A stretch of 63,529 nt of DNA, the filler included, from Candidatus Zapsychrus exili (GTDB taxonomy: Bacteria > Omnitrophota > Gorgyraeia > Zapsychrales > Zapsychraceae), in NCBI GenBank assembly GCA_030765585.1. It is 5 parts of 5 records of this genome, joined end to end, with 100 filler letters (N's around TTAATTAATTAA, not from the genome) between each part and the next. Parts side by side here need not be neighbours in the genome. Positions count along the whole stretch, not along the records: positions 45,667 to 63,529 come from JAVCCJ010000108.1; 4 more parts are not named here. One strand, written 5' to 3'. The notes under the pieces are model-generated. The model made no database searches. It was given only the letters and a program-made list of their open reading frames with translations, and was not told where the DNA came from. Both the position numbers and the translations under genes were made by a program. Each line of letters starts with the position of its first letter. Position 1 is the first letter of the stretch. Positions 12,998-63,529 of the stretch are shown here, one piece after another.

Positions 12998-13097
12998 NNN
13001 NNNNNNNNNNNNNNNNNNNNNNNNNNNNNNNNNNNNNNNNNTTAATTAATTAANNNNNNNNNNNNNNNNNNNNNNNNNNNNNNNNNNNNNNNNNNNN
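12998..13097. other. Artificial contig linker
   Basis: N-run, TTAATTAATTAA, N-run; 100 nt. Confidence 0.99.
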
Positions 13098-23531: not shown

Positions 23532-23631
23532 NNNNNNNNNNNNNNNNNNNNNNNNNNNNNNNNNNNNNNNNNNNNTTAATTAATTAANNNNNNNNNNNNN
23601 NNNNNNNNNNNNNNNNNNNNNNNNNNNNNNN
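23532..23631. other. Artificial contig linker
   Basis: N-run, TTAATTAATTAA, N-run. Confidence 0.99.
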
Positions 23632-31523: not shown

Positions 31524-31623
31524 NNNNNNNNNNNNNNNNNNNNNNNNNNNNNNNNNNNNNNNNNNNNTTAATTAATTAANNNNNNNNNNNNNNNNNNNNN
31601 NNNNNNNNNNNNNNNNNNNNNNN
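31524..31623. other. Artificial contig linker
   Basis: N-run, TTAATTAATTAA, N-run. Confidence 0.99.
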
Positions 31624-45566: not shown

Positions 45567-45666
45567 NNNNNNNNNNNNNNNNNNNNNNNNNNNNNNNNNN
45601 NNNNNNNNNNTTAATTAATTAANNNNNNNNNNNNNNNNNNNNNNNNNNNNNNNNNNNNNNNNNNNN
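45567..45666. other. Artificial contig linker
   Basis: N-run, TTAATTAATTAA, N-run. Confidence 0.99.
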
Positions 45667-46070
<404 letters not shown>

Positions 46071-46252
46071 ACTTGGCTTATTTTAACTCTTAAAATTATA
46101 AACGTGGCTTGTTTCTTTTTTCTAAAAAACTTTAAAAAATTTCAAAAAAAGAATCTTAAGATCATCTCCAGGTTGAAAAATGACCTTAATAAAAAACAAT
46201 AAGATTTCAAAGATCGTTACAAATTTACAACATTCCCCTCATGGGGACTTGA

Positions 46253-46281
46253 AGAATACCAGAGAATTATATCTTTGTCAA
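46253..46281 (-). promoter_or_regulatory. rRNA promoter with downstream boxA-like site
   Basis: TTGACA-N17-TATTCT; GATCTTTGAAA about 40 nt downstream. Confidence 0.75.
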
Positions 46282-46588
46282 GTATTTTTCTTCGATAAAT
46301 TTAAAAAAATTATTTTACTGCCAAATTACCTAAATTAGGGCAAATTCAACATGTTACGATTTAAACAAAATAGCTTATCAGCCTCTTAAAATAAGAGAAA
46401 TTTATTATTTAAACAAAACTATATTATATTGGTTTATAATAGGTATTTTTAATATATATTATAGACAACTTCAAAGGTAGAGTAAATATACGTGCAGTAA
46501 GAGACACTTCTTTTTTTAATCTAAAATTCTTGCCTATTTATTTTACTATTTCTTAACAATAAGATTCTACAAATATCTTAAACTTGAC

Positions 46589-46822
46589 CTACTCCATATT
46601 ATTTTCTTTTAGGATAGCTTCAACTTCTGCAATAGCTTTTTTAAGCTGAGGCAAAAGGTGTACGTTTATTGAAACCCCTTTAGCTGTTGGAACCATTTCA
46701 TCAGTTCCTTGAGTCATTGTCCAAGTACGAATATCGATTAAATCGTTACCCTTAAATTCTCTTATACCTACTCGAATTTCTTGAAACTTGTTTTTTTGAA
46801 AAACCGTAATAGTTTTATCCAT
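46589..46822 (-). CDS. PC4/YdbC-family ssDNA-binding protein
   Basis: EIRVGIREFKG..IDIRTW..PTAKGVS. Confidence 0.88.
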   Translation of the reverse strand: MDKTITVFQKNKFQEIRVGIREFKGNDLIDIRTWTMTQGTDEMVPTAKGVSINVHLLPQLKKAIAEVEAILKENNME

Positions 46823-46909
46823 CTTCCATCTCCCCTTTTTATTTGTTAAATAACAAATGTAATTATATTTTTGTACTACCTACTTTTTCTATATATCAAA
46901 GACTTGCAA

Positions 46910-48052
46910 TTAAAACCTCTGTTGCAAGACTGTTTTTTTCAAAATAAAAGTTAACGATAAAATTAAAACTCCAATAACAAAAAACGTAATAGAAAAACTT
47001 TTCTCAACAAAAAAGCTACTTACAAAAAAACCTATTGCCCCTGCTACAAATCTTACCGAAGAATTTAAACTCGCAATAATAGGTCTATTCTCCTCTGAAA
47101 AGTCCGTCAAAATAGTCGATATGCCATTATGCCCTATCGTCCATGACATTGCGATCAAAACAAAAATAATACCAAGAACAATTTTATTATAAACGCCTAA
47201 GAGCAACATTATGCCTATAGCTAAACCTACAATGCCAATATAACAAGCAGTATCCCTTCCCTTCTTATCGGAAATATATCCACCTACAATCTGACCAACA
47301 AATCCACCGATACCAGCAAAAAGAAAAAACATACTGATACTTAACTTATCCATTTGATAAATTCGACTTAAATAAATACCGAACCACTTATGCACCCCAT
47401 GAAAAAGAAAGCTTATTGCTGCGATAAAAATAAAGACATCTCTGATTCTAGTATTGCTAAAGGCCTTAAAATAATTTACTTCTCCCTTATGTACGCATTT
47501 TATCAGATCAGAATTAAATAACACAAAACTCAACACCACAAGCAAACTAAATATGCCTGGTATAAAAAATAACCAACGCCAGTGTATTATTCCGCTAAGA
47601 ACAATCCCAACAATAGCTGATAGAAAGCTGCAGGCAAAAAAACCTCCTACTAACCTTCCACGTATTTGTTTATCAAAGAGCTGTCCAATAAGTATAAGTC
47701 CTAAAGGAATTATACTTGCGCCAGTAACTCCCATAATTACTCTGGCAAACAAAAGCTTAGGCAATGAACCTATAAAACCACAAGCAAGTGTAGATACTCC
47801 AAAAAGAGCTATGGTTATAACAAGAACTGTTCTATACCTTATATACCTGGTAATAGGAGCATAGATAAGCGCTCCAATACCATAAGACATAATATAATAG
47901 GGAATGATCTTTGCTGCCAAAAAATCTGATACTTTTAAATCAATACTAATCTCTGGAATAACAGCAGCAATAGCCGCTGCATTAAAAGATATATTAATAC
48001 AACCTAAACAAATAAGTATATATATTACTATCTTATTATTAATATTATACAA
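46910..48052 (-). CDS. MFS transporter
   Basis: About 12 TMs, ARVIMG, WRWLF, GYISDKKGR. Confidence 0.9.
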   Translation of the reverse strand: MYNINNKIVIYILICLGCINISFNAAAIAAVIPEISIDLKVSDFLAAKIIPYYIMSYGIGALIYAPITRYIRYRTVLVITIALFGVSTLACGFIGSLPKLLFARVIMGVTGASIIPLGLILIGQLFDKQIRGRLVGGFFACSFLSAIVGIVLSGIIHWRWLFFIPGIFSLLVVLSFVLFNSDLIKCVHKGEVNYFKAFSNTRIRDVFIFIAAISFLFHGVHKWFGIYLSRIYQMDKLSISMFFLFAGIGGFVGQIVGGYISDKKGRDTACYIGIVGLAIGIMLLLGVYNKIVLGIIFVLIAMSWTIGHNGISTILTDFSEENRPIIASLNSSVRFVAGAIGFFVSSFFVEKSFSITFFVIGVLILSLTFILKKTVLQQRF

Positions 48053-48151
48053 ACTTTCCTATTTGTAAACAAAAATTTATTATTAGCCTTAATTATAATA
48101 TATAGTAATTTTATTATAATAATATATCTATTATATAATATGTGCCCTTAA

Positions 48152-48958
48152 TTACTTCCCTGCTTTCCCTATTTTCTTCTTTTTTAAATCACTATACATA
48201 TTGTACGCATTCTTAACAGATGAGCCTTCGTGAATTATAGAGCGAACTGCCTTTATCATTGGCACAGGCGCATCTGACTGAAAAATATTTCTTCCCATAT
48301 CAACTCCAACAGCTCCATCATTGATAGCATTATAAGCTAAATTCAAAGCATCTAATTCAGGAATTTTCTTACCCCCTGCTATAACAACAGGAATTGGAGT
48401 TTGCTTAACCAACTTTTGAAAACCTTTACAATAATAAGTTTTAACAATATGCGCTCCGGTCTCTGCTGCTATTCTGCAAGCCAAACCTAAATAACGAAGA
48501 TCGCGAACCATTTCTTTTCCAACAGCTGTGACAGCTAAAATTGGTATTCCATATTTTTGCCCCTTATCAACAAGCTTAGCTAAATTAACAATCGTTCTAT
48601 GCTGATATTCTGATCCTACAAAAATTGAAAGCGCAAGCGCAGACACATTCATTCTGATCGCATCTTCAATTGATACCGTAATATCTTCATTCGACAAGTC
48701 TTCATCAAGCACACTATTACCGCCACTTGCGCGCATAACAATCGGCGTATCAATTGATGGATCGACACAATTTCTTAATGCACCACGCGTCAACATCAAA
48801 GAATCCGTATAAGGCAACAATGGTTTTATAGTTTTAGAAATATTTTCCAGACCGCTGGTAGGTCCTAAGAAATATCCGTGGTCAACAGCAAGCATAAGAG
48901 CCTTGCCTGTATCTTTTTTGATTATCCTTGCTAATCTATTTTCCATTCCCCAATCCAT
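48152..48958 (-). CDS. lsrF: LsrF-family thiolase / class I aldolase
   Basis: MDWGMENRL, LAVDHGYFLGPTSGLE, VKTYY, VIAGGKK, GVDMGRNIFQS. Confidence 0.9.
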   Translation of the reverse strand: MDWGMENRLARIIKKDTGKALMLAVDHGYFLGPTSGLENISKTIKPLLPYTDSLMLTRGALRNCVDPSIDTPIVMRASGGNSVLDEDLSNEDITVSIEDAIRMNVSALALSIFVGSEYQHRTIVNLAKLVDKGQKYGIPILAVTAVGKEMVRDLRYLGLACRIAAETGAHIVKTYYCKGFQKLVKQTPIPVVIAGGKKIPELDALNLAYNAINDGAVGVDMGRNIFQSDAPVPMIKAVRSIIHEGSSVKNAYNMYSDLKKKKIGKAGK

Positions 48959-48980
48959 TTGATTCCTCCTTGTTTGTTAA

Positions 48981-49102
48981 AAATCCTAAATCCTAAACTC
49001 AAAATCCTAAACAAATAAGAAATTCGAATAACCAGAAATTCAAAACATTTGAATTTATTACTTTTAATTTGTTTCGTGTTTCGAGCTTCGAATTTCGAGT
49101 TT
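48981..49102. repeat. Heptamer-based palindromic element (same type as 26161-26333)
   Basis: AAATCCT/AAACTCA run ending AAACAAAT; right arm ATTTGTTT followed by CGAGCTT/CGAATTT/CGAGTTT. Confidence 0.7.
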
Positions 49103-49108
49103 ATAGCT

Positions 49109-50131
49109 TTATGGTTTTATTATAATTTTCATTGATTTATTTGGCTTAAGCACAAGCCCAAAACCTTTTTTAGTATCTTTTAAAGAAAACTTATGCGTTA
49201 TCATATCTGAGACAACGATTTTCTTTTTTGCAATTAAATCTATTGCTTGTTTTAAATCTGGGCCGCTTGCGGCGTATGAACTTAAAACAGTTAGCTCGTT
49301 TCTCCAAAACATTTCATTAATGCTTCTTGGAAAACCTGCCCCACGAGCTGCCGCTGTAAACACCAAAACAGTACCTCCGCGCTCAACGGAATCTAGACCT
49401 TGCTTTATCGCAGTGGTAGACCCTGCACATAAAATAACTAGATCAGCTAACTTGCCCTTAAAATACTTCTTAACTTTTTTTGAAACATCTTCTTTTGCAT
49501 TAATAGTAAAATTTGCGCCAAACTTTTTAGCCTGTTTTAATCGATACAAATCTATATCTGTTGCAACAATAGATTTTGCTTTGCTATATTTTGCTGTCTT
49601 TACATGAAGTAGTCCTGATATGCCGCTTCCAATGATAAGCACTCTTTTACCCTTAGCGCTACCCAATAAGCGCTGTCCACGAAGAACACATCCTAAAGGC
49701 TCGGCAAACGTTGCATCACAATCTGTTACATTTTTAGGAATTTTAATTGTTCCTGTTTTTACATTAATTTTAGGCAACTGTATATATTCAGAAAATCCAC
49801 CAGGATAAAAGCTTGTACTACGAATTGTATCACAAACACTTTCATGCCCGTTTAAACAATATTGACATTTATAACAAGGGACATGATGTGTCGCAACTAT
49901 CCTATCTCCTTTTTTAAAGCCACTAACATTTTTACCTACTTTCTCAACTGTACCTGCGACTTCATGACCTAAAACCAAAGGCACTTTATGAATCCTATAC
50001 CACTCCATAACATCAGATCCGCAAATACCACTTGCGGTTACTTTCATAAGTATTTCCGATGATGATACTTTAGGAATTGGCATATCTTCTAATCTAATAT
50101 CCTTATTGCTATAATACATTGAAACCTTCAT
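49109..50131 (-). CDS. Zinc-dependent (MDR) alcohol/sugar dehydrogenase
   Basis: GICGSD, LGHEVAG, CYKCQYC..C, EPLGC, GSGISG. Confidence 0.92.
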   Translation of the reverse strand: MKVSMYYSNKDIRLEDMPIPKVSSSEILMKVTASGICGSDVMEWYRIHKVPLVLGHEVAGTVEKVGKNVSGFKKGDRIVATHHVPCYKCQYCLNGHESVCDTIRSTSFYPGGFSEYIQLPKINVKTGTIKIPKNVTDCDATFAEPLGCVLRGQRLLGSAKGKRVLIIGSGISGLLHVKTAKYSKAKSIVATDIDLYRLKQAKKFGANFTINAKEDVSKKVKKYFKGKLADLVILCAGSTTAIKQGLDSVERGGTVLVFTAAARGAGFPRSINEMFWRNELTVLSSYAASGPDLKQAIDLIAKKKIVVSDMITHKFSLKDTKKGFGLVLKPNKSMKIIIKP

Positions 50132-50163
50132 AAATTTCCCATTTCTTTAAATAATACTTTTTC

Positions 50164-50238
50164 GTAGGGGCGGGCCTTGCGTCCGCCCAAATAACAATAA
50201 TATTTTTTGTAAAGGGCGGACGCAAGGCCCGCCCCTAC
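50164..50238. repeat. GTAG-type REP doublet
   Basis: GTAGGGGCGGGCCTTGCGTCCGCCC and its exact reverse complement separated by an AT-rich spacer. Confidence 0.85.
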
Positions 50239-50239
50239 A

Positions 50240-50752
50240 CTATTTCACTACAAAATTCTTTCCTGGAACCCATTCATACAGAGGAACGTATCCTTCAGTT
50301 TCCTTTGGTGCAATTGATATAGCCTGAAATAACGTTACATCTTTAGTCTTTCCAATAAGTTCTTTTTTTCTTTTTCTTTTTGCTGGATAACAAAAAACAG
50401 GAACGCTATGTCTTTTAGAAAGCGCTCCGATTATTGACGCACCAATAAAACAAAATGCTCCTCGATAATCTATTTGATCATACGCCAACCACACTTCTTT
50501 AACCAACTCCTTGTAAAATAAAAAACCTACCATATTGTCTGCAATGACTGTTGGCTTAAGCTTTCTTTTAAGAAGCTCTTTACATATTATTTTCGAAGAA
50601 TCTAAATTTGGTCTGCCTTCAACAACAAATATCTTGTTCACATCTTTTGTTTTTAATAAATCAAAAAAACTAGCATCAAATTCTCCATGCAAAACAATGG
50701 AAGAATTCTTCATTTGTGCAAGATCGCTATCTGTAATATTTAATTTACGCAT
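50240..50752 (-). CDS. Short divergent MtnA/eIF2B-like protein (C-terminal domain only)
   Basis: VVEGRP, TVIADNMVGFL, H.VP.F, P.YEWVP align with the neighbour's VAETRP, TLIADNAVG, HFYIPFY, PGFDIVP. Confidence 0.65.
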   Translation of the reverse strand: MRKLNITDSDLAQMKNSSIVLHGEFDASFFDLLKTKDVNKIFVVEGRPNLDSSKIICKELLKRKLKPTVIADNMVGFLFYKELVKEVWLAYDQIDYRGAFCFIGASIIGALSKRHSVPVFCYPAKRKRKKELIGKTKDVTLFQAISIAPKETEGYVPLYEWVPGKNFVVK

Positions 50753-51746
50753 TTTCAGTTACACTTATAGGTATAGACTTTGTTATTAAATCATGAGGAA
50801 CAATGTCGAAGCCAGGATAAAATCCATCAACTTCTCCTCGAATAATCTTTTTATTGTTAAATTTAAGCAATTCTGAAGAATGTCTTATTTCAACAGGAAT
50901 ATCTTTTCCCGTTCTTATCAAATCAGACGGCTGCGTTAAAGCGTAAAATGGAATATAAAAATGCCTTGCAGCAACTGCTATTTGATATGTTCCTACCTTA
51001 GAAGACAAGTCGCCATTAGCGCATGATCTATCTGATCCAACAATTACTTTGTTTACCAATCTATCTGACATAACAGAGCCAACCGCATTATCAGCTATCA
51101 ACGTTGCCCTTGCGCCCATCTCTTCTAATTCCCAACAAGTAAGCTTTGCACCTTCAAAATTAGGACGAGTCTCCGCTACAAAAAACCTAATATCCTTTTT
51201 TTGCTTTTTACAAAGATACGCTGCCATTGCAAGTTCACCACTGACATTATAATGAGTAAGAATACTGTCGCCATCTTCTATTATTTCAGATAATTTTTCT
51301 ACTCGTTCTAATCTTTTTATTCTTATGCTTTCTAGATAACCTTCGGTATTATTCTTAACAAAGCTTTTCACATCTAGACCACTGTCTATTGCCATAATAG
51401 CCCATCTTACGATAATTAACGTTACATCTGAGAAAGGAAACCCTTGGCGACTCTTATTAAGATCGTGCGCGACATCTTGCACTTTCTTCAATACTTTTTG
51501 CTGAGATTTAAAATCACCTTTTTTAGGAGACTTAATCTTTCCAAGCTCAAGCAGGAATGTGTTTAAAACTACTAAGAACTGGCCAAAAATGCGAGTTTTC
51601 GCGTTATGTATAACATCAACTGCGCCTTTAGTATTTCTAACTGAAATGTAGCGAAATTTGTTTGGTATAAGCGTTTCATCTAATACACTTAAAATACCAG
51701 CCTTTAATTTCGCAGGCCAAAATAATGAAGATTCTTTTATATTCAT
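50745..51746 (-). CDS. MtnA/eIF2B-family sugar-1-phosphate isomerase-like protein, divergent
   Basis: LDETLIP, ILTHYN, AETRP..EGAKLT.WEL, VIVGSDR..NGD..KVGTY, IPVE.R, FDIVP. Confidence 0.85.
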   Translation of the reverse strand: MNIKESSLFWPAKLKAGILSVLDETLIPNKFRYISVRNTKGAVDVIHNAKTRIFGQFLVVLNTFLLELGKIKSPKKGDFKSQQKVLKKVQDVAHDLNKSRQGFPFSDVTLIIVRWAIMAIDSGLDVKSFVKNNTEGYLESIRIKRLERVEKLSEIIEDGDSILTHYNVSGELAMAAYLCKKQKKDIRFFVAETRPNFEGAKLTCWELEEMGARATLIADNAVGSVMSDRLVNKVIVGSDRSCANGDLSSKVGTYQIAVAARHFYIPFYALTQPSDLIRTGKDIPVEIRHSSELLKFNNKKIIRGEVDGFYPGFDIVPHDLITKSIPISVTENA

Positions 51747-51752
51747 AAGTTT

Positions 51753-51795
51753 AGGTGCCTGGCACCTGTAGGTTTCTTTTAGGTGCTTGGCACCT
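51753..51795. promoter_or_regulatory. Two 15-bp palindromes just upstream of the mtnA-like operon (operator or small repeat)
   Basis: AGGTGCCTGGCACCT (51753-67) and AGGTGCTTGGCACCT (51781-95). Confidence 0.5.
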
Positions 51796-51919
51796 ATTAT
51801 TTAATCTAGATTTTATTAAAATACTTATAAATGTCAAGCTATATATTATATGATAAATATTAATAATATTATATTATAGGCAGGATAATAATGTTTGTCG
51901 TTGAAAGCTAGCTTTCAGG

Positions 51920-54900
51920 CTAACGCGACAATCCCTGTTTTTTATGAGATTGCTTCGTAGCTACGCTTCTTGCAATGACAACACGCGCTAAACGCGCGCC
52001 TTGTGGCTTGTTATAGTGTTCGACTTGACCGATCAAATCTTGACTCTCACTGTCCTCTTCTTCATTTAATCCAAGCAAATTATATATATTTGTAACAGGA
52101 GTAATATTTATAATAATAGGCATGACACCTTCAATATTATCCAAATCTATGCCACGAAGAGACTCTGGAAGATTAAAATCAACCCCTTGTCCTTTTATTT
52201 CTATGTTCATCTTATCCGCATTAAAATCAATTCCACCCTTATTTGCTGTCATCGCCTGATCTTTTTGCTTTTTAACTTTACTAACAAATTTTTCTTTATC
52301 TAAGCCTTTAAAGTCAAGATTCATATTATAATGTTCTCTGCGAGAACTATAGCTACCATAAAACCCTTTCTCTTCTTCCCACTTTTCTTTAATTTGCTTT
52401 TGTGTCTCACCTTTATCTTTAAGGTTAGTCTGCTTCTTAATAGATGCCCATGATTTGTAGGCTATATAAGAAGTTATTAATCCAGCCGTTTGGAAAATTA
52501 AGAATTTTCCTACAAAAGACCAATCCAAAGTATGTGATCCTGTGTCGCTAACAATATCATCAACAATCGCTGCTGGAGCCAAATAAAATGCAGCACCTAC
52601 AAAAAACCAAAAAGGCTTTAAAAGCAACCAATTAACAATTTTCTCTTTTAATGTTTCCGCCTTTATTTCAGAAGGCTTTTCTTTTCTCACAAAAATAGGA
52701 TCAATATTTTCTGCAGGATCATAGAGAGAAACAATCATAGTCCCTACAATAGGACTTTTATCAAATTGTATCTCAGCAATTCTAGATTGCTTTCTTACAA
52801 TCTTTTCTTGTTGTTTTAATATGTTAGCACCATTCTCAGGAGATGCTACATTATGAGGTCTGACAAAAAGATATTCAAAAATATTCTGAATAATATTATT
52901 TTTCTTTCTCTTTAAAGTTGCTCCTTGAGCATGCAATAGAGTTGTATTATTTTCTGCGGATGTTACTGCCATAAAAGGACTACTTGAAGCAATATTTGCC
53001 AATGCATTATGCTGATTTGACATGCTGTCTCCTCCGCTTCGATAACGCACTTTATTAAAAATAGGATCAACTGCTCTACCCATAGTGCTTCGATTAATTG
53101 TAATATCTGCAAATAGTTTTCTATTGCCGATGTCACACTCTAAGTTATGAATTAAAGCACCAAACTCTCCATATTGAAACAAATTATTAGCAGACTCTAG
53201 ACCAATAAATGTATCTAACTGGGCTTCTAAAACATTGTATACTCTTTTTTCTCTACAAATCTTCTCAATATATTGATATAAACTTTTATTATCTTTTACT
53301 TCTCTATCAGCATGAAAATAGAAATCAGCTTCTGGATTACGTTCAGCTAACTCAATGAGAACTTCAACAAATTTTTTCTCACGGCCCTCTTTGGACACTA
53401 AGCTCACAAGCTCTTGAACAAGTTCTGCTGAGCGCTCATCTTTTGGTTTTACATTTAAAATATTATTGGTTTGCTCAATAATATTAGCATCTCTTAAGTC
53501 TTGCACAATCTTCTTCCTTTCATCATTGCTGCTTTTTATCATTTTCCAAGCTAAGCTTAAAGCTTGAGTTGCGCTAGAAGGAAGCTTATTTATTGGACTA
53601 TATTTAAATGGCTCATGCAATGCTTCAGAATATCCCTTAAAATCATATTTTTCTTTTTCTGTTATCATCGCCTCGTCTGCTTTTGATAATTCCAACTTAT
53701 CATCTAACTTATTTCCAAAAATAATATCAAATGATGATACATCTGAAGAAATATCATCATAGTAATTACCAAAAACAAGTCCCTCATTAAACAGTTTGGA
53801 AAAATGCTCCAATCTAGGGAGATTAAAATTATGCTGATTAAAAGCAACTATAATCTTCTGAGCAATTCTTTGAATGCGAGTTCTTATGGGTCTCGGAATA
53901 TGCTCTGGATGATATGAAAAAGAAAGGTGTTCAGCATCTATAAAAAACAAAAGAAGCGATGATAAATCCATAGTATCTTTATGTGATTCGTTAGCTCTAA
54001 TATCAACAAAATTGAATTCTTTATTCTTAAAATCAACTAATAAGTTTGAAGTGCTAGCATGATCAATGCTATGTCCAGCATCATTAATAACAAAATAAAG
54101 CTTAACAAACTTATTGTAGGAAGACTGTGGCATATTAGAAACCATATCTAAATAATTCAAATAATACTCTTCCATAGACTCTTTATCATAATTAAGTTTT
54201 ATTGCAACTTCATTAGAAACTCCTGCGGCAACTCCTCTTTGGTTTAATAAAATTTCAACTCCTCCAATACGCGCTATAACTTGCCCAACATTATATCCAG
54301 GCAAAATATCGTCGACCATCTCTAACGAACTTCCCTTTAAATAATATTTAGCAGGAACTTTAATAACAAACTCTCTAATATTCGGTATAGCAAAAACTGT
54401 CCCCTCTCCGCCAGAACCTATAAAATTAATCGAACCATCGGCTATAGCTTCTTGAATCATACTAAGAATATCCTTATAACCTGCATCTTTTATTTTTCTT
54501 AAAAAATCTTCTTTAGATATATAAGGCCCTACAATACTTTCGTCTTTATTGTCCGACACCATTGCATTATCTCCGCTAATTTTTTTAACCATTAAAAGCA
54601 TATTTATTACATTCTGCGATATAGTCCCATTTCTTTTCTCCTTCAAAAATTTCTCAGAAAAATCATTGTCCTTCAAGAGTTTTGATAAATTAGTTGCAAC
54701 AACTCCATCTCTATACTTAAATTTAAACTTATCCTCGTCAACAATTCCTTCTTCAGAAACTTTCTTGATGCTCTTAACAATACTTCCACTATAACTATCC
54801 TTCATGCCAACCACTTCAGAAGCATCAGGAAACAAAATTGTCATTCTTTGCAAAACATTAATTTTATTTTTTTCCCTTTTAAAAGCAGTCTCGCAAGAAT

Positions 54901-57900
54901 CTAAAATAATCTTACCGTTTCTCTTTAAGGCCTTCGAAACTCCTCTTTGATTTAAATATTTAAAAGTTTCATTCTTTATTGATTTAAACATTGAATCTAA
55001 GTCAATGGTTTTCCCATCCTTACCATGACCTGCAAAAACAATAACATCTGCAAGCCTAGGCTCGTCATCTTCTGAATCAAAAAATGTTGCTTCACGTAAT
55101 GCTTCAACAATTTTCTCCTTACTTTCAACTTCGTAATACAACACATTAAATCCACCTTCAATAAAAGTTTTTAAACTACTACTATCAAGAAAAGCTGCGT
55201 TGTGATCTGCAGTAGCGTTAATAACAACAACTTTCGGACGTATATCAATCTTTTTATTTCTAATATTATTTCTGTTGCGAATAATCTCATCCCCTACAGA
55301 AGTCTCATTACCAAAAATATTGATTCTTTCTTTTGACCATACTAAACTCCTAACAAGCCCCAACTCATGATGTTGATAAATATAATTTAATAATTCTTTC
55401 ACTTCATCTGACTTCGCTAATTCATCCTCATAGATCAAACTTTTCCTATAAGCAGCTCTTAAAACAGCTTGAACAATCCTGAGCCTTTCTTGTGATATTA
55501 AAAAACTGTTACTCCCTCTGGCTTTAAGCTTAGAAAACGCCCCTACATCTTCTAATACATAAGGTAAGATATTTTTTGCTATCTTTATATAATTATCTAT
55601 GTTCTCATCAAAATCTTCTACATTATAACCTTTCATATTATAAAACCTATGCGCTATTGAGCGCATAACGGCTCTTACCACAAATTCTTCACTGCTATTT
55701 TCTAATTCTCTACCTTCCATCTCAACAAAAGATTTAACAATACTTTCTTTTAGCTGTTTTACTTTTTCTTTGTGTCTAAATATTATTCTAGAATACTGGG
55801 GGAGAATATCCTCTTCAGAATTTTCAACAAACTTTTCAAATAAATGATAGATATTTCTTCCTAATTTATGATTTTCGTATGACTCCTTTTTCTTAAACAA
55901 AGTCCTGCCTATCATCTTTCTCACAGTTAGCTTGTCGTCAAACGCCTCTGATAAAAAACCTACAGCCCTATAAGTATAACTATTTTTATAATCTATTTCT
56001 TGATCAGCTTTATCACTATCAATAAATAATTTCTTTTCTAACTTAGCTAATAACTTTTTCTTAAAAATAGAAGATTCCCCTTTAATGCTCTTGTATACTT
56101 CTTCTATATCATCATTTTCTCTAATATTAAACGCTCTAATTCTTTTTGAATCGTCTAAAGAAATTTTCTGTTGCATATTACTTTCTGCTGTCTTTTTAAA
56201 AGTCTTAACTAAGTAATCTACAAAACTTTTACGCTGAACTTCATACTTGTTCCACCTAGAATCTTTATTTCCTAAAAGAAAAACAATGGCGCCTTGAATC
56301 TCTTCCTTAGTGCCCATAATAAGTATCTCATTCTTTAAATATATAGTTTTTCCTCTATATTGCTCCATATATATCATCGCGCCTAATATCCTTGCTATTA
56401 AAACTCTTAACATTAACTTCATGCGAAAATCCAAGCTCATCTAAAATAGAACGAATTTCACCAATATCAACAAAATTAGTTCCAGCTAACGTGTGACTTT
56501 CAAACTTATCAAAACCCTCTTCTTTTCCTAATGTTGCTACAAGCCTTCCATCTTTATCATATCCAACTTTAAAAGTTGTTTCATTAATTTCCGTCGTCAT
56601 CGCCTGATCTTTATCAAAAGATTGAGAATTGCTTAACTGCTTTGCAATTGCTTTTATTATGTAATCACTACTATGAGGTGTTTTATTTTTAAAATTAAAC
56701 AATATTGCTCTCTTAAACGGATTTCTTATTCTTCTATCAGCTATTGCTTCTTTGAATTGTTTAAGCAAAACATCATTGTAGTCTTTTTTATCTCCAAAAT
56801 ACTCCTTAAAATAACCTTCTATTTTCTTTCCTTGACGAGAGAATTTTGGAAGCCTACTATACGCATCAACAAGATATTCAAAAACATATCTGTCATTGCT
56901 CTCTATATTTTTAAACGACTTTGCAGTACGATAAGCATAGTGCCAAGCTTCATCTTCATGATTTACGCCCTCTACTAAAGGAAACTGTATAATATTTATG
57001 CCCAAGTCTTTCTTCTTAGCTGCATCAATATTTTTTATATAATCATCTATAAAATATATCTGATCTCTTTTTAATCCTTTATTTTTCTTTAACAATCTTT
57101 CTACTTCTTCTTCTAAGACATTAGCCTTTATTGTTCCATCTCCGGATGTAAAACGTATTCTTGTAACAGTTTTGCCTTCAACAATACCTACAGATGCAAG
57201 CACTTTACGCGTCAACCTACCTTTTCCATCGCTTTTAGGTCTTGCTGTAAAAACTACAACATTTACACCAAAATTCTTTAATGTATCTAAAATATCTGCA
57301 TTGAGATGGGTTGGCATTTTAAAGAAATTATGCTTTGCCATCCTTTCCTCGTCTTTATCTCCCTGAGCATAGACAACCTTTTGAGCTTTACCAATAGCCC
57401 ATCCAAGCATGGCTTGACCCCCTTTTGTATTTACATCAAAAATTTCTCCATTATTTATTTTTTCAACAATATAATTGTGAGCAAATATATTAATACTGCG
57501 AACTTTTTGAGTCTCAGAACCAACAAATCCCATAGGCATTACCATGGTATTGTCTAAATCAACAAAAAGAGTTTTAACGTTTCCTTTTTTTGCCTCCTCA
57601 ACTAAATCTACAGATATATCGCGCCAAGAATCATACTTCAAATCCCTACTTTTTCTTACATCTTTATTCTCAGAAACCATTGCTTTATCTTTTTCCTTAC
57701 CATCTATCTCGAGCGCTTCTTTAATAATTTTTAAAGTTTGTTCGCTATTAGAAACATTTGTGTGAGGATCTTCTAAGCCTTTTATAATAAAAGATTCTTT
57801 AACAGAATTTAATGTATTATTGTATCTATCTACATATCCCTCAAAGAAACTCTTTTGATATTTAAGGCCACTGTTTTTAGGTGGGGCATGAGAATCTCCA

Positions 57901-60122
57901 TCTGCAACTATACTTATACTATTAGGAATCTCCCTAGAAAAAGATGCTACGCTCTTTTCACTAAACAACTCCAACATCTTATAGCTATGAGGACTTAGTG
58001 ATTCGTAGGCATCACGAGCATCTTTATTAATTATTCCATAAATAAAACTAGGCTCTGGCATTGTCGTCCATGCAGCTACATTAGAGCCAGATATAGGAGC
58101 AGCAATTTCTATATATGCTTTTACATCAGAAGAAAGCTCTTTATGATATCCTTTATTTACAAAATTCCTGTAAACGATTGTCCCTAAAGAATAACCAATA
58201 ACGCTATATTCTTTAGGTGAATATTCATTATGAAACTTATACATCTGTTCTTTTAATATTCTAGAAATATCATCTATCGGAAGATAATTGTCATAAATAA
58301 AAGCTGCCACATTAAAATCACCTTTAATCTCATCTATAATATTTGAAAAAGTACTGTTAGCTCCTCTTCCTGCGCCATGAAGTAAAAATACTGTTGATTT
58401 AGAGTTATCGAATTCTCCTAAAATATAAATATTGTTAAGAGAAGAAAATACCTTTAATACTTCTTCTTTTCTTGGGTCACCATCTCTTGCGCTTCTTAAC
58501 ATCTGACCAAGTTTTGATAGCGGAACTACATCAGGAACCGCTGCATCTCCCCAAACAAGATCTCCGTTAATACCACTATATATAAGCTCTAATGCATGTT
58601 TAAAAATTTTAGTATTATGCTCCCATATTCTATTTTTTATATTTGAATCTTGTTCTCTATAAATATTATCCTCTAGGAGCTCTCGGAAACCATGCATAAC
58701 ACCTTTAACGTTTTCTACCGAAACAGGGCCTTTAAGATTTTCTATAGGAAAACGCTCATCCTCTACTTTTTCTTTTTCTGCATTCTCAGGAAATACGCCA
58801 AGACCTTCACCTTCTACATATTTACTATAATCATACTCATAAAAACCTTCGCGAAATTCCTCAAGTATTTGCTCTTGAGACATGCTTATATCAGGCATCA
58901 AAATCTCATGATCTAACTCTATATTCTCTCCGATAACACCATCTGGTGATAGTAAAGCAACTCCTGTTGTAATTACAAATAGTCCTACAGCAATGGCCTT
59001 TGCAAGCTTTCTCCCCACGCTACGATTTGTTGTTGTTATCATAGCTTCATCCATTTTCCATGAAAGACCGCCAGAGAAATATTTCTTTGGAATTATTTGT
59101 TTTGTTGCAGGGTCATATTCTTCCTTTATATAATTACAAACACCCTTCTTAAAAGCCTCTACATATTGACTATATATTTTCTTTGACACATCTTTGTCTT
59201 CTATGTCTATACCTTTTATTTTGGACTTGTCTGAATATACTTTATTTAAAATAGCATCCTTTAAATTACCTTTAAACCAATGAGCCAAGATAATAGAATT
59301 ATATATTTGTCTTAATTCTGCGAAATTCTTTCCTTCGTTTACTTCTTTTTCTATAGCTGGAATAATTATCTCTTTAATTATTTCAGTCTGCAGTTGACGG
59401 TTTGCAGTTGGCAAAACATTGCTTGCTTTTTGCTTACTGCCTACTGCCAATTGCCCACTATTCAAATATTCTTCTTCAAGCATAACCTTCAATTTAGACT
59501 CAACTACAAACGCCCTATCTCCCTGCTCGTACACAACAGCCTTTTCTGGTACTATCCATACCTTATTAAAAGTATCCGTAGAAATATCTATCTTTCCATA
59601 TTTTTGATATGCTTTTTTGTACAACTTGTCCCAAAATTTTCTTCCTATTTCGCCTTCTGGATGCATAAGAGACGCTGTTATTTGCTTTAACAGGTAATCT
59701 TGCGCAAGCATATCGCGACCCATATCTGTTTGACCTAAAGCATTTGGGATAATCCTATCTTTTTCATAAGGAGACAAATTGACCCACAAATTATCTTCTG
59801 GGATAGTTAAAGCTGATAAGAAATATTTTATAAGTTTCTGACTTTCTTCCTCTAATGTGTCCTCTTGCGCCTTTGAGTCTCCAGAATCAACTATAAAATC
59901 AAATTGTAAGGGGTTATCAAGGTAGATTTTAATACCGCGCAATATGGCGGGAGCAAAACCAGAACTTAAGTTTACTATAGCTCCAGGCTGCGGGAGACCC
60001 AATAACCCCTGTGCAAAACTTGGCGTCGGGAATATACAGGTAGAAAGAAAAGAAATAACTACAAAATATATAATTATCTTTAAAGAAAAATTAATATTTT
60101 TATTATTGGCATTGATAAACAT
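51920..60122 (-). CDS. Giant (~2730 aa) secreted modular DxAM-linker / GGIDFN-tail protein; one frameshift near 56360
   Basis: ORFs 56355-60158 and 51920-56440 join by removing one A (DDIYGA|YRGKTIYL); signal peptide ending SFA-Q; six DxAM linkers; hydrolase (GYSLG), HAD (DLDNT..FIDD), His-Cys (FAGHG..LDSC), kinase-like (GSGGEG..VIK) modules. Confidence 0.8.
51924..51979. repeat. GTCATTGC..GCAATC-type palindromic repeat read in frame at the giant gene's 3' end
   Basis: GAGATTGCTTCGTAGCTACGCTTCTTGCAATGAC, translated on the minus strand as VIARSVATKQS. Confidence 0.7.
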
Positions 60123-60332
60123 GCTTCTCAGATACCCCCCAATTGATAAACTTAACAACGCATAATACTGATATCAAAATCTAATATAAGTATAAAATAC
60201 TTTCTTAATAAATAGGGGCATCTAGGGAGCTTTGAAGAAAGCGGTTTCTTTTACATCTACACAGAGAAGCCTTAACTATAATTTTGAATATTTTTATTAA
60301 TATAAATACTATTGGTGTGGACACGAAGTGTC

Positions 60333-61352
60333 TTATTTAGGAAGGGAATTTTCGTACTTTTCAGCGTATTCAATTGTCTGACGCATAATGCTTACTGTTT
60401 GCGCAGGAAACTTTCCTACAGCTGTTTCTGCAGATAACATGACATAATTTGTTCCATCTAAGATTGCATTGGCTATATCTGAGACCTCTGCTCTAGTAGG
60501 TCTACTATGCTCTGTCATACTTTCAAGCATCTGTGTTGCAGTTATAACAAATTTAGACTTTCTATTACATTTATGTATCAAATATTTTTGTATTATAGGA
60601 ACTTTATATATCGGAAATGTTACTCCTAAATCCCCCCTTGCAACCATAATTCCATCACACGAATCAATTATGCTATCTATATTCTTTACACCATCTTGAC
60701 TTTCAATCTTAGAAATTATTTTGACCTTAGGCAGTCTAGCTTTAGCTATATTGCTTATTCTTAAAATATCATTCTTATTTCTAACAAACGACTGAGCTAT
60801 AAAATCAACGCCATTTTCTATTCCAAATTCAAGGTCCCTTTTGTCTTTTTCTGTTATTATGTTTGCCTGCAATTTAAGCTCTGGTATGTTCACACCTTTT
60901 CTTTGTTTTAAAATACCTCCCTGAACAACTTCTAGCTTTAGCCTTTTATCTGATATACATAAAACCTTAAGATGAATATTACCATCATCTATAAAGACAT
61001 CAGAACCTTTTTTTATATCCTTAACATTGCCCAAATAATCAAATGGTATATGGTTTTTAGATTTATTTTTGCTATTAGACATATAGAATATCTTATTCTT
61101 CTCTAAAATCTTGCTACCTTGAAAATGCCCAAGCCTTATACGATATCCTTCCAAATCCTGCAATATCTTAATCTTCCTGCCGCTCTTGTTAATAGAACGA
61201 ATCGTATCTATCATCTTTTTGTGTTGAGTATAATCGCCATGAGAGAAATTAAGACGCACTACGTCGCATCCAGAAGCCGCCATATCGCTTAAAATCTTCT
61301 TAGAAGAACTTGCTGGGCCAAGTGTACATATTATTTTGGTTTCTCGTCGCAT
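60333..61352 (-). CDS. pyk: Pyruvate kinase lacking the C-terminal domain
   Basis: [53 protein letters not shown]; 339 aa. Confidence 0.95.
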
Positions 61353-61380
61353 AAAACATCCTTTTTTGTTACTGTTTCTC

Positions 61381-61580
61381 CGAGGAATCTCAGCTTTACT
61401 GTCTTTAAAATGTAGCTGAGCTTTCTCGCTTCATATAATTTTTATCCTTCGCGAAGAATTTCGATCTTTCTGTATTCTTAAATGTAATCGAACTTACCCT
61501 TCTTATATTATTATTTTTCTAGAAAATCTTAATTCTTCTATATTCTAGGCTATGGTCAAACTTACTCACTTCATATTTAT
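61381..61580 (-). ncRNA. Three tandem ~70-nt structured repeats upstream of pyk (candidate cis-regulatory RNA)
   Basis: Units start ATA(T/A)GAAG..(T/A)AAG; inner stems TTCGATT/GATCGAA and CTCAGCT/AGCTGAG covary around ACATTT..ACAG. Confidence 0.5.
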
Positions 61581-62041
61581 TTCTTTGCAGGAAAACGAAC
61601 ATCTAGTTCATTAAACACTATATCGACAGCTTTTCTCTTAGCGCTTGAACTTGACGATGCTATGTCAATTTCCAACATATTATCCTCTAATTCAGTTAAA
61701 AAGATACCTACCTCTGTCGTGTCTATATTACCTTTGATACCCATAACAACAACTATACCCTTTATAGGATCTTTTAAAAATACTTCATAGAGCTTTTTTG
61801 TAAAAGGTTCCAACTCTTCTTCGTTAATAGCAAGACTTAAAACAGCATCATAGCATTGATCGAAACTGCATTTATAGACCTTACTTACAGCGCGTACACG
61901 TGCTTCTTGGAGCTCTTTTGTAGATGAACCCCAAATAATCTTAGGCGACTCAAATAAATTCGAAATAAGATTTGAACATCCCGCCCCAAATAAAATTAAA
62001 ATTAAAATTAAAAACAAGAATGGTTTTTTATTCATAATCAC
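61577..62041 (-). CDS. Hypothetical lipoprotein
   Basis: Hydrophobic leader with GAGC lipobox. Confidence 0.7.
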   Translation of the reverse strand: MIMNKKPFLFLILILILFGAGCSNLISNLFESPKIIWGSSTKELQEARVRAVSKVYKCSFDQCYDAVLSLAINEEELEPFTKKLYEVFLKDPIKGIVVVMGIKGNIDTTEVGIFLTELEDNMLEIDIASSSSSAKRKAVDIVFNELDVRFPAKK

Positions 62042-62066
62042 CCACTATAATAATTTAATAAATATA

Positions 62067-62519
62067 TTAAAATGTTAAGCTTTCTAAAATAGGAATTAAT
62101 AAACTCTTCTCAACCTCTATCCTTAGTGCTAGGCTTGAAGAAAAATCACGAAAGTCTGAAACAAAATTCTTAGGATTAATATCTCCCATATCTGCTGGAT
62201 GATCTTCGATAAAAATCAATGTCTTGACTTTTATCTCTTTGAAATCTTGCAACAGAAATTTCGCATCACTGCCAATTTGCCCACCTATGTTTACTACCTT
62301 TTCTAAGACATCAAACGTCTGCCTATTTTGTCTTTCAAAATGATCCAACAATATTTTTTCTAAATCTCTTAACTTAGGCTTTACATTTTTATAAGAACGA
62401 ATAGCTGGAGAAATTTCTTTAAGTGCATCTAGAATTAATTCTTGCCCATTTCTCAACTCTAAAATAAGTCTTTTAAAATGATACGGCTTTTGTTCGCTAT
62501 TCATTTTATATTTATCCAA
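62067..62519 (-). CDS. Hypothetical helical protein, possibly degenerate hemerythrin-like
   Basis: LLDHF..Q and RI..E...L.P spacing; overlaps the CBS gene. Confidence 0.5.
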   Translation of the reverse strand: MDKYKMNSEQKPYHFKRLILELRNGQELILDALKEISPAIRSYKNVKPKLRDLEKILLDHFERQNRQTFDVLEKVVNIGGQIGSDAKFLLQDFKEIKVKTLIFIEDHPADMGDINPKNFVSDFRDFSSSLALRIEVEKSLLIPILESLTF

Positions 62520-62994
62520 AAGAGAATGTAGCGTTTAGCATATCATGTCTTCCTATAATACCAACTAAATGTTTCCCCTGCATTACCGGAAATGTATGCA
62601 CACTGAGCTTTGCTACTGCTTCAACAATTTCATTTAACTCTGTATCTGGTTTTACAAAAACAACATTGTCCGACATTATATCGCTTATAGGCTTATCTCT
62701 AAACTTAGATACATTTTTGTGAAAAATTTCTCTTCTTTCTTCTGGGGTCAAATGATCTTCTGACATTTCTTCTTCTACAATATTGTTAAGAAGTTTAAAA
62801 AGATCTGTCAACGTAACAATTCCAATAACATCTCCTGTGTCGTCGACAATAGGATAAGCACTTACCCCTATTCTAAGCATTAAATGCGCAACTTCCACAA
62901 TTGTAGTATTTTTATTAACAACTTGCGCATTCTCCGTCATAATATCTTCGGCGAAAATAGGTCTTACATTAGATTTTTGTTCTTTTTCTGCCAT
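62512..62994 (-). CDS. CBS-pair domain protein
   Basis: AEDIMT, YPIVD..VIGIVTLTDL, SDIMS, FPVM..LVGIIGRHD. Confidence 0.92.
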   Translation of the reverse strand: MAEKEQKSNVRPIFAEDIMTENAQVVNKNTTIVEVAHLMLRIGVSAYPIVDDTGDVIGIVTLTDLFKLLNNIVEEEMSEDHLTPEERREIFHKNVSKFRDKPISDIMSDNVVFVKPDTELNEIVEAVAKLSVHTFPVMQGKHLVGIIGRHDMLNATFSFG

Positions 62995-63020
62995 AAGAGA
63001 GCTCCAAATTTAATGTTATT

Positions 63021-63529
63021 TTATTCTTCTTTTTTTTGTTTCTTGCTTAATTCCTCTATCTGAATCTTAAAATCTTCACACATTCTCTCTAAACCTAAAG
63101 ACTGTGCTCTATGTTTAGCTAACTCTTGATTTAGAGATCTTTCTTTTTCTAATAAATGATCATTTAATTCTTTTACTTGCCCTAACTCAGAGGCTAACAT
63201 TTCTTTTTCTTGCACAATTCTGTCGTACTCTTCAATATTTCCTACTATCTCATCCTGATTGCTTTCTTGCTTTGCAGAATCATCACTTTTATTTAATATC
63301 TCTACTTGACTTTTAAGCTCAGCATTCTCGATTACAAGTTCTTCAATCTTCTTCTTAGATTCTTTTGTCTTATTAAACAAGACTTCTTCCAATTCTATTA
63401 TTTCGCGCTCTAGAGAATCCTTGTCTTTTTCCTTTCCTAAAACTGCTGATACATCTATCTTCTCTACAGTTTCTTTTATTACAAAATCAAACTTTTGCTT
63501 GCTATTAGCACCTAAATTCTCATCGATCA
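63021..63529 (-). CDS. Coiled-coil protein, 5' part outside the window
   Basis: Frame stays open from the window end to the stop at 63021; E/K/Q-rich heptads. Confidence 0.7.
   Translation of the reverse strand, partial: IDENLGANSKQKFDFVIKETVEKIDVSAVLGKEKDKDSLEREIIELEEVLFNKTKESKKKIEELVIENAELKSQVEILNKSDDSAKQESNQDEIVGNIEEYDRIVQEKEMLASELGQVKELNDHLLEKERSLNQELAKHRAQSLGLERMCEDFKIQIEELSKKQKKEE

Follow-up and report, generated by a model that had tools for sequence, protein, structure and literature searches.

Several described protein systems string unrelated modules between conserved elements. MARTX toxins, which are exported by type I secretion and lack an N-terminal signal peptide, keep both ends constant and vary the series of enzyme modules in between, which the parts of the literature consulted consider to be released by proteolysis. 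In the polymorphic toxins (CdiA, Rhs, MafB), a conserved trafficking N-domain and a short boundary motif, VENN or DPxG, precede variable cargo, and viral polyproteins have short repeated sites between their modules as well as internal signal sequences behind such sites. The phylum Omnitrophota, for its part, encodes giant proteins ("Archaeovorins", "multi-enzyme metabolic clusters"): the main text of West-Roberts et al. (10.1101/2023.11.21.568195) proposes that such giants are cleaved, at points that it gives as unknown, which blocks domain-wise analysis, and that of Nielsen & Lui (10.64898/2026.06.07.730766) describes multi-enzyme giant proteins in Omnitrophota. Here we compare with these systems a locus of Candidatus Zapsychrus exili, a member of the same phylum (assembly GCA_030765585.1; G000 in our set of genomes), in which unrelated enzyme modules are delimited by a recurring D-x-A-M motif, hereafter called the mark. 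The window that was analysed is 63,529 nucleotides (nt) long and consists of five contig parts joined by N-spacers (12998-13097, 23532-23631, 31524-31623 and 45567-45666); its positions 45667-63529, which contain the locus, correspond to contig C73 (JAVCCJ010000108.1).

G000 has about 20 paralogues of this kind, the locus being one of them, and a profile search identified 16 heads and 16 tails in that genome. The members of this family share one architecture: a signal peptide and a fixed head at the front, a fixed tail at the end and, between them, anything from one to many cargo modules that are unrelated to each other; the tail is present at the C-terminus in 105 of 150 relatives as well. 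They measure 600-7,500 amino acids (aa), occur in multiple copies and, in G000, are dispersed among genes that by eye appear to be housekeeping genes. The variation of cargo between fixed ends that the first-pass annotation had suggested looking for is seen both across paralogues and across genomes; its picture of the locus was incomplete in that it missed the approximately 20 paralogues, the genome-specific versions of the mark and the presence of the mark in giants. The cargo in G000 includes two GAPDH, PGK, enolase and aldolase, and UDPGP, PFK, PGI and PGM, and these, carried jointly by two paralogues (G000:C80:14983-23955 and C83:1-9519), make up most of glycolysis. Guanylate kinase, methyltransferases, GNAT, HATPase, NUDIX, arrays of helix-turn-helix (HTH) domains, the RNA polymerase alpha-CTD and modules dependent on S-adenosylmethionine (SAM) are also found among the cargo, and 11 of the 24 family open reading frames (ORFs) of G000 that were scanned gave no domain match at all. 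Cysteine is depleted in the family (0.10% vs 1.09% elsewhere), several paralogues having none past residue 60; catalytic cysteines are retained. A strong hydrophobic stretch is present in one of the 49 G000 segments of at least 100 aa.

Firstly, we provide evidence that the mark in G000 is a strict interdomain delimiter. The 25 ORFs analysed contain 85 DxAM sites where 2.8 are expected, and no other pattern of this shape comes within a factor of about four of it. Of these ORFs, 22 (79 sites) were picked by head or tail homology alone and three (six sites) by motif count; four other ORFs with at least two DxAM, namely the giant, which is treated separately below, and three unrelated genes, were set aside. 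The extended form D-x-A-M-[VLIMT]-[ATSVG] is present at 83 of the 85 sites. No mark falls inside a Pfam domain (0 of 53 vs 13.4 expected; 13 ORFs with Pfam matches, best stretch per family only), and marks bracket whole PGK, enolase, PFK and PGI domains. A mark follows the head by 1-55 aa in 16 of 16 cases and lies at most 32 aa from the tail in 14 of 16. Hence, the proposal that DxAM is an interdomain linker holds well above chance, and none of the findings named beforehand as speaking against it (a chance frequency, motifs within folded domains, or a fixed module order lacking the linker) was made.

The codons at the mark bear on two other explanations of its origin. In G000 they are biased, with GCG for Ala at 30 of 85 sites (vs 74 of 486; p 5e-5) and GTG for Val at 18 of 32 (vs 49 of 494; p 1e-9); in addition, four of the six sites in the window belong to a 23-nt repeat family (74-78%), and three G000 paralogues share longer duplicated linker stretches. 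These features would suit a mark that is a mere translated scar of a DNA site for cassette recombination. On the other hand, other genomes prefer other synonymous codons, all four Ala codons occur, and SSP sites, a version of the mark described below, mix AGY and TCN serine codons, which implies that the peptide is conserved and that the DNA is homogenised within each genome. Moreover, every counted site is in frame (the count covered in-frame sites, without a search for out-of-frame copies), and no recurring recombinase neighbour was seen by eye at the G000 paralogues. This explanation is therefore already weakened, and we consider it very unlikely. As to the second, the Met of DxAM could be an internal translation start yielding separate proteins, since its ATG is followed by codons of the sort usually seen at gene starts. 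However, Shine-Dalgarno-like words precede 10 of 85 marks, whereas the figure is 223 of 555 for gene starts and 524 of 6604 for internal Met, so that there is no enrichment, and the SSP and N[SA]AV versions lack a Met and have varied Val and Ile codons. We find an internal start scarcely credible.

Secondly, the version of the mark is a property of the genome, common to the head-tail family and to the giant of that genome. Among 150 relatives, 46 have DxAM, 39 have SSP[VILM], one has both, and 65 cannot be clearly assigned to either; the SSP version spans two taxonomic families. Further versions are NxAML, N[SA]AV, DxA[VIL]L and SSA[VI], and the overall consensus is [DNS]-x-[AP]-[MVIL]. A query with SLT/M23 located giants in 26 of 151 genomes, and the giants were sampled as pieces of 7,000-27,000 aa. 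Both family and giant were sampled in 16 genomes; the mark is present in both at 10 of them (p<0.005), and its version is identical in 10 of 10 (SSP in six, N[SA]AV in two, NxAML in one and DxAM in one). The giant of genome G054 illustrates this, with 51 SSP[VILM] sites in 23,156 aa where 0.95 are expected. This giant is Archaeovorin-like (GT5, GT1, methyltransferases), contains a mark-free core of 7,909 aa with SLT and M23 domains, both peptidoglycan hydrolases, and gave no head or tail match in its sampled part. Marks are often paired, 6-40 aa apart. In G000 itself, the giant-gene cluster (G000:C24:37451-109729) consists of four consecutive ORFs of 9937, 3548, 2776 and 7894 aa, separated by two overlaps and one single stop, and may be one broken gene; it sits behind a pilin/secretion locus and encodes C39, OmpA, DEAD, M23, SLT, glucan synthase, PRTase and CrcB domains.

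A code that is common to a whole genome raises the question of what reads it. The head is one candidate, which we rejected because none of its columns co-varies with the mark (best 0.2 bit; 182 de-duplicated heads, only proteins with a clear version). In addition, the G000 heads are scattered over the whole head tree, which shows 37 label changes vs 65 after shuffling, some clustering by kinship remaining. As the heads neither cluster by genome nor track the mark, the reader is most simply a separate, trans-acting factor. The caspase-fold module encoded in the window was rejected as the general protease because it is too rare (one locus in G000 and 1 of 44 other genomes). No link was found for S26 peptidases, and a search for the SecA_DEAD family found ordinary SecA only. 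A secreted trypsin-like protease of 250 aa without PDZ domain is encoded divergently just upstream of a head-tail gene (G000:C13:27289-28038), and could be a candidate reader or stand there by chance. The glycine pairs at the end of the head and the start of the tail could be candidate sites for a C39 peptidase.

Thirdly, stretches resembling signal peptides are located directly behind the mark. Using a hydropathy rule, we found a hydrophobic stretch in 29 of 356 segments, 19 of which lie at most 45 aa behind the mark (null mean 4.2, maximum 9 in 1000) and none near a segment end; without the one protein that contributes five, 14 remain vs 2.3. Sixteen of the 19 are more basic ahead of the core than behind it, and mostly acidic residues follow; some end in A-x-A or lipobox-like motifs. 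Giants show the same arrangement, with 12 of 20 stretches right behind the mark vs 4.8, and module 1 of the window is one case in the head-tail family. A signal peptide functions near a free N-terminus, in a cytoplasm. Because of this need for a free N-terminus, the stretches give the strongest indirect support to cutting, and to a release that takes place in a cell which is not the exporter itself.

These stretches also weigh on a reading in which the mark is read without being cut, serving a translocation motor or a chaperone as a grip, or as a signal to restart, while it threads the modules one after another. Genome-wide versions and a trans-acting reader fit such a signal equally well, as do the DEAD-type domain in the G000 giant and the frequent doubling of the marks at that 6-40 aa spacing. 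However, complete signal peptides right behind the mark, some with A-x-A or lipobox-like ends, require a free N-terminus, and oligomeric GAPDH, PFK, PGI and enolase are, according to established biochemistry, hard to assemble while chained. We regard an uncut signal as improbable. The same stretches, together with the cargo, bear on where cutting would take place. The Sec signal and the depletion of cysteine indicate the periplasm, and the polyprotein might be cut in the predator's own periplasm or at its surface, the enzymes acting there on leaked prey contents with no injection; the main text of West-Roberts et al. (10.1101/2023.11.21.568195) indeed proposes extracellular pre-processing of sugars for such domains. 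Against this, the basic side of the internal signal peptides faces the mark, which is the wrong orientation by the positive-inside rule, and HTH, RNA polymerase alpha-CTD and SAM-dependent cargo would have no obvious substrate there. Action in the periplasm of the exporter thus seems unlikely to us. Enzymes using adenosine triphosphate (ATP), nicotinamide adenine dinucleotide (NAD) or SAM, and HTH modules, suit a cytoplasm, and cargo with these needs accordingly fits action in one. The cytoplasms of Ca. Velamenicoccus and of its prey have been described as being in open contact (PMC13153191, as far as the accessible part of that source goes), which we count in favour of action in the prey cytoplasm. 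Most Omnitrophota have been proposed to be predators or parasites, and not pathogens of macroscopic hosts, in the part of Seymour et al. (PMC10066038) consulted.

Based on this, we lean towards a reading in which an exported polyprotein is cut at the mark by a protease acting in trans and its enzymes, once released, work within the cytoplasm of a prey or host cell that is attached. The precursor would cross the inner membrane through Sec, and head and tail would address it to a second delivery step, for which the most evident choices are the pilus/secretion locus and the giant-protein machine. The cutting protease would be encoded at another place in the genome; among the enzymes set free in the prey or host cell, those whose signal peptide is exposed would be exported again, into the envelope of that cell. 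Taken separately, cutting at the mark by a trans-acting protease is likely, and action inside the prey is somewhat favoured. The first-pass annotation had suggested processing at DxAM and secreted effectors; cleavage at this site and delivery to prey or host are still what we infer. A wider version may also be entertained, tentatively and as something that we would not expect outright: a genome-wide polyprotein system in which hundreds of cargo enzymes obey one four-residue code and a co-delivered protease cuts inside the prey, installing glycolytic, signalling and envelope-attacking enzymes, some of them routed by the Sec system of the prey.

Several observations weigh against cutting and delivery as we picture them. 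No reader protease candidate could be linked to the mark among C39, trypsin-like, S8 and S26 peptidases: the C39 peptidase of the giant is similar in a DxAM genome and an SSP genome (21 of 23 loci aligned, just one of them from a genome shown to use SSP), trypsin-like proteases number 2-5 per genome with none tied to the mark, and S8 was not found in two of five genomes, including G000. By sequence and fold searches, neither a catalytic nor a pore fold is recognisable in the head. The six remaining genomes gave no signal on the concordance between family and giant, a mark being found in the family only in three of them, in the giant only in one and in neither in two. Among these, G044 has 39 DxAM in the family and none in 13,332 aa of its giant, G009 has 24 and none in 6,666 aa, and the DxAM signal in the G000 giant itself is weak (6 vs 1.2 expected). 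The 65 relatives outside both main versions should be added to these, as well as the fact that the five mark patterns were fixed after inspection and that related genomes are not independent. Furthermore, the biased mark codons of G000 indicate that DNA copying contributes, and the stretches behind the mark may be relic signal peptides of captured genes.

How, then, does the family compare with the systems outlined above? The parallel with MARTX toxins drawn by the first-pass annotation is a likeness in working only, and membership or homology is not borne out. Unlike these toxins, the family has no repeat regions, its head being a 320-aa alpha/beta globule and its tail a stretch of about 68 aa without repeat-family match; it has no conserved cysteine protease domain in cis, the caspase module being too rare and several paralogues cysteine-free over most of their length; its N-terminus resembles, by eye, a Sec-type signal peptide, with no transporter neighbour noticed; and it combines a short, strict delimiter, probably read in trans, with metabolic cargo and many paralogues. 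It differs from polymorphic toxins in having several cargos per chain, a conserved C-terminal tail instead of a variable toxin domain, and no immunity gene seen beside the G000 paralogues, where neighbours of at least 150 aa look housekeeping by eye. Viral polyproteins share the repeated short sites between modules and the internal signals behind them; the family is cellular and exported, and the protease was not found in the same chain. The Omnitrophota giants have the same delimiter within a genome and a row of cytoplasmic-type enzyme domains with overlapping cargo (methyltransferase, HATPase, GNAT, HAD, PGM, glycolytic enzymes), and one module of the locus has a relative inside a giant. However, giants exceed 10,000 aa and have many transmembrane (TM) segments, as opposed to 2,773 aa in two ORFs at the locus; they lie next to a secretion locus and carry C39/S8 and SecA-like domains, none of which was found in the window gene, C39 and DEAD being in the separate giant of G000; and the head-tail family is scattered and multi-copy, with a head and tail of its own. 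Judged by its sequence, the family with its punctuation fits none of the known families compared. No description of head, tail or mark was found in the openly accessible literature searched, and "GGID" does not occur in the 20 papers covered of 35. The main text of Nielsen & Lui contains none of the words "motif", "linker", "cleav", "SSP" and "delimit", and delimiter terms are equally absent from that of West-Roberts et al.; the supplements could bear on novelty.

The head defines the reach of the family. It is present in 28 of 31 relatives (18 of 18 within the taxonomic family) and, in a sample of 201 genomes from the whole phylum Omnitrophota, in 37, and it forms 8,307 clusters at 50% identity; the titles of the 65 named head loci read Candidatus Omnitrophota/Omnitrophica or uncultured Planctomycetales/Planctomycetia metagenome-assembled genomes. 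Its structure is predicted with confidence as a globular alpha/beta domain (predicted local distance difference test, pLDDT, 79.5), for which no match was found in Pfam, NCBIfam or PDB sequences. Fold searches against the PDB gave weak matches throughout (best Foldseek E 0.06; best VIA Z 3.8, root-mean-square deviation 4.9, 115 aligned), and in the Atlas only nameless Omnitrophota clusters were matched. A full-length model of the family protein P0149 has a confident tail (residues 641-660, pLDDT 87-92) and poor cargo, and its fold search matched the methyltransferase cargo only. The 3.7-Mb genome G012 has 79 head matches, including short frames of 130-140 aa that hold only the first 83 profile positions. 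Distant head relatives (L213-L232, E 1e-75 to 1e-5) were found in other families of the class (genomes G190, G275, G208, G309 and G285); several have SSP-type marks and enzyme cargo, and the tail profile was unmatched within the 3-4 kb pieces.

At the locus itself, where all features are on the minus strand, the motifs of the first-pass annotation are all present, including its six DxAM (6 in 2,773 aa vs about 0.23 expected from the family frequency). By contrast, the single giant ORF that it described is not intact. ORF A (56355-60158; 1267 aa from a TTG, with an ATG at 60122) encodes the signal peptide, the head, modules 1 and 2 and the start of module 3, and stops without a tail. ORF B (51920-56440; 1506 aa, in another frame) encodes the rest of module 3, modules 4 and 5 and the tail, without signal peptide or head. 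The frame break corresponds to their 86-nt overlap (56355-56440) inside module 3, so that the first three DxAM are in ORF A and the last three in ORF B. A contig of run X1 spans 56220-57147, identical to the window and gap-free across the break, which is therefore present in the X1 reads; X1 may be the source sample. Among the pieces listed, none of X2 or X3 bridges the stop, read joints with sides of about 20 letters being disregarded; no RNA data set was among the listed ones that contain the sequence. Other G000 loci are broken as well, by a frame shift (contig C119) or by single in-frame stops (contigs C39, C67 and C83), and the locus at C13:472 ends without tail; head and tail are in one frame at all 12 loci fetched from G044 and all seven fetched from G007. 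Stop-codon reassignment was rejected, the stops being TAA, TAG and TGA. Taken together, the break here and the broken G000 copies, against the intact loci of G044 and G007, suggest that this copy is decaying; its products are probably a first half that lacks the tail and a second half that is not exported.

The Sec-type signal peptide (60012-60122; core 60033-60089, end S-F-A), assigned by hydropathy and motif and judged by eye, is followed by the head (59067-60011; about 320 aa, end KYFSGG) and delimiter 1 (DEAM, 59040-59051). Module 1 (57690-59039; 450 aa) is alpha/beta hydrolase-like, with LLHGAG and GYSLG (58182-58196); its best Pfam match has an E of 3e-4, just under the cut-off, and it has a 23% match within a giant of G043. 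The TM segment proposed ahead of this hydrolase looks like a second signal peptide (58950-59042), with a basic n-region first, a core at 58950-59006 and then acidic residues. Delimiter 2 (DKAM, 57678-57689) precedes module 2 (56610-57677; 356 aa), HAD phosphatase-like by weak, sub-threshold matches (E 0.01-0.13) and by DLDNT (57546-57560), FTAR and FIDD. Behind delimiter 3 (DQAM, 56598-56609), the broken module 3 (54572-56597) has an N-terminal part without assignment and a caspase-fold cysteine peptidase (54851-55171) with both the His (FAGHG) and the Cys (DSCE) kept; the "His-Cys protease" is thus identified, above cut-off, as Peptidase_C14 (PF00656, E 2e-5). Delimiter 4 (DNAM, 54560-54571) leads to module 4 (53678-54559; 294 aa; GSGGEG, VIK, FVD), which has no Pfam match and resembles a minimal protein kinase: a profile of four sequences, the module and three relatives, has NleH-type minimal kinases as its best PDB matches (E 0.001). 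Three of the 44 other genomes have these relatives, which form part of proteins of 1,529 aa and 3,010 aa and of a giant of 26,489 aa, and a relative of module 3 in G012 is the sole cargo of an 860-aa head-tail protein; such changes of context amount to module shuffling. Module 5 (52262-53665; 468 aa), behind delimiter 5 (DEAM, 53666-53677), gave no usable match in Pfam, NCBIfam or the proteins of other genomes, and has one weak hydrophobic stretch (52550-52606) in place of the two TM segments proposed. Delimiter 6 (DQAM, 52250-52261) and the tail (52040-52243; about 68 aa, start GGIDFN; tail profile E 8e-23) complete the locus. A pyruvate kinase gene lies directly upstream (60333-61352), and two adjacent IF-2B-family (MtnA-like) genes, one of them short (170 aa), directly downstream (50240-51746). 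One loop of the head, modelled with low confidence, contains an in-frame insertion (59395-59470) that can form a hairpin of -17.3 kcal/mol (no shuffle control) and is single-copy in G000 by short BLAST, and the end of ORF B (51925-52005) reads through a small repeat element (VIARS...) with three other copies in G000, with hairpins.

The mark provides, for each genome, a map of candidate cleavage sites, which proteomes already available or yet to be acquired could verify, and links a family of more than 8,000 clusters without library match to the giant-protein machinery. If delivery to prey proves true, a widespread phylum of predators or parasites would possess a system of protein delivery that has gone unrecognised, and the family would offer a wealth of unknown enzymes.

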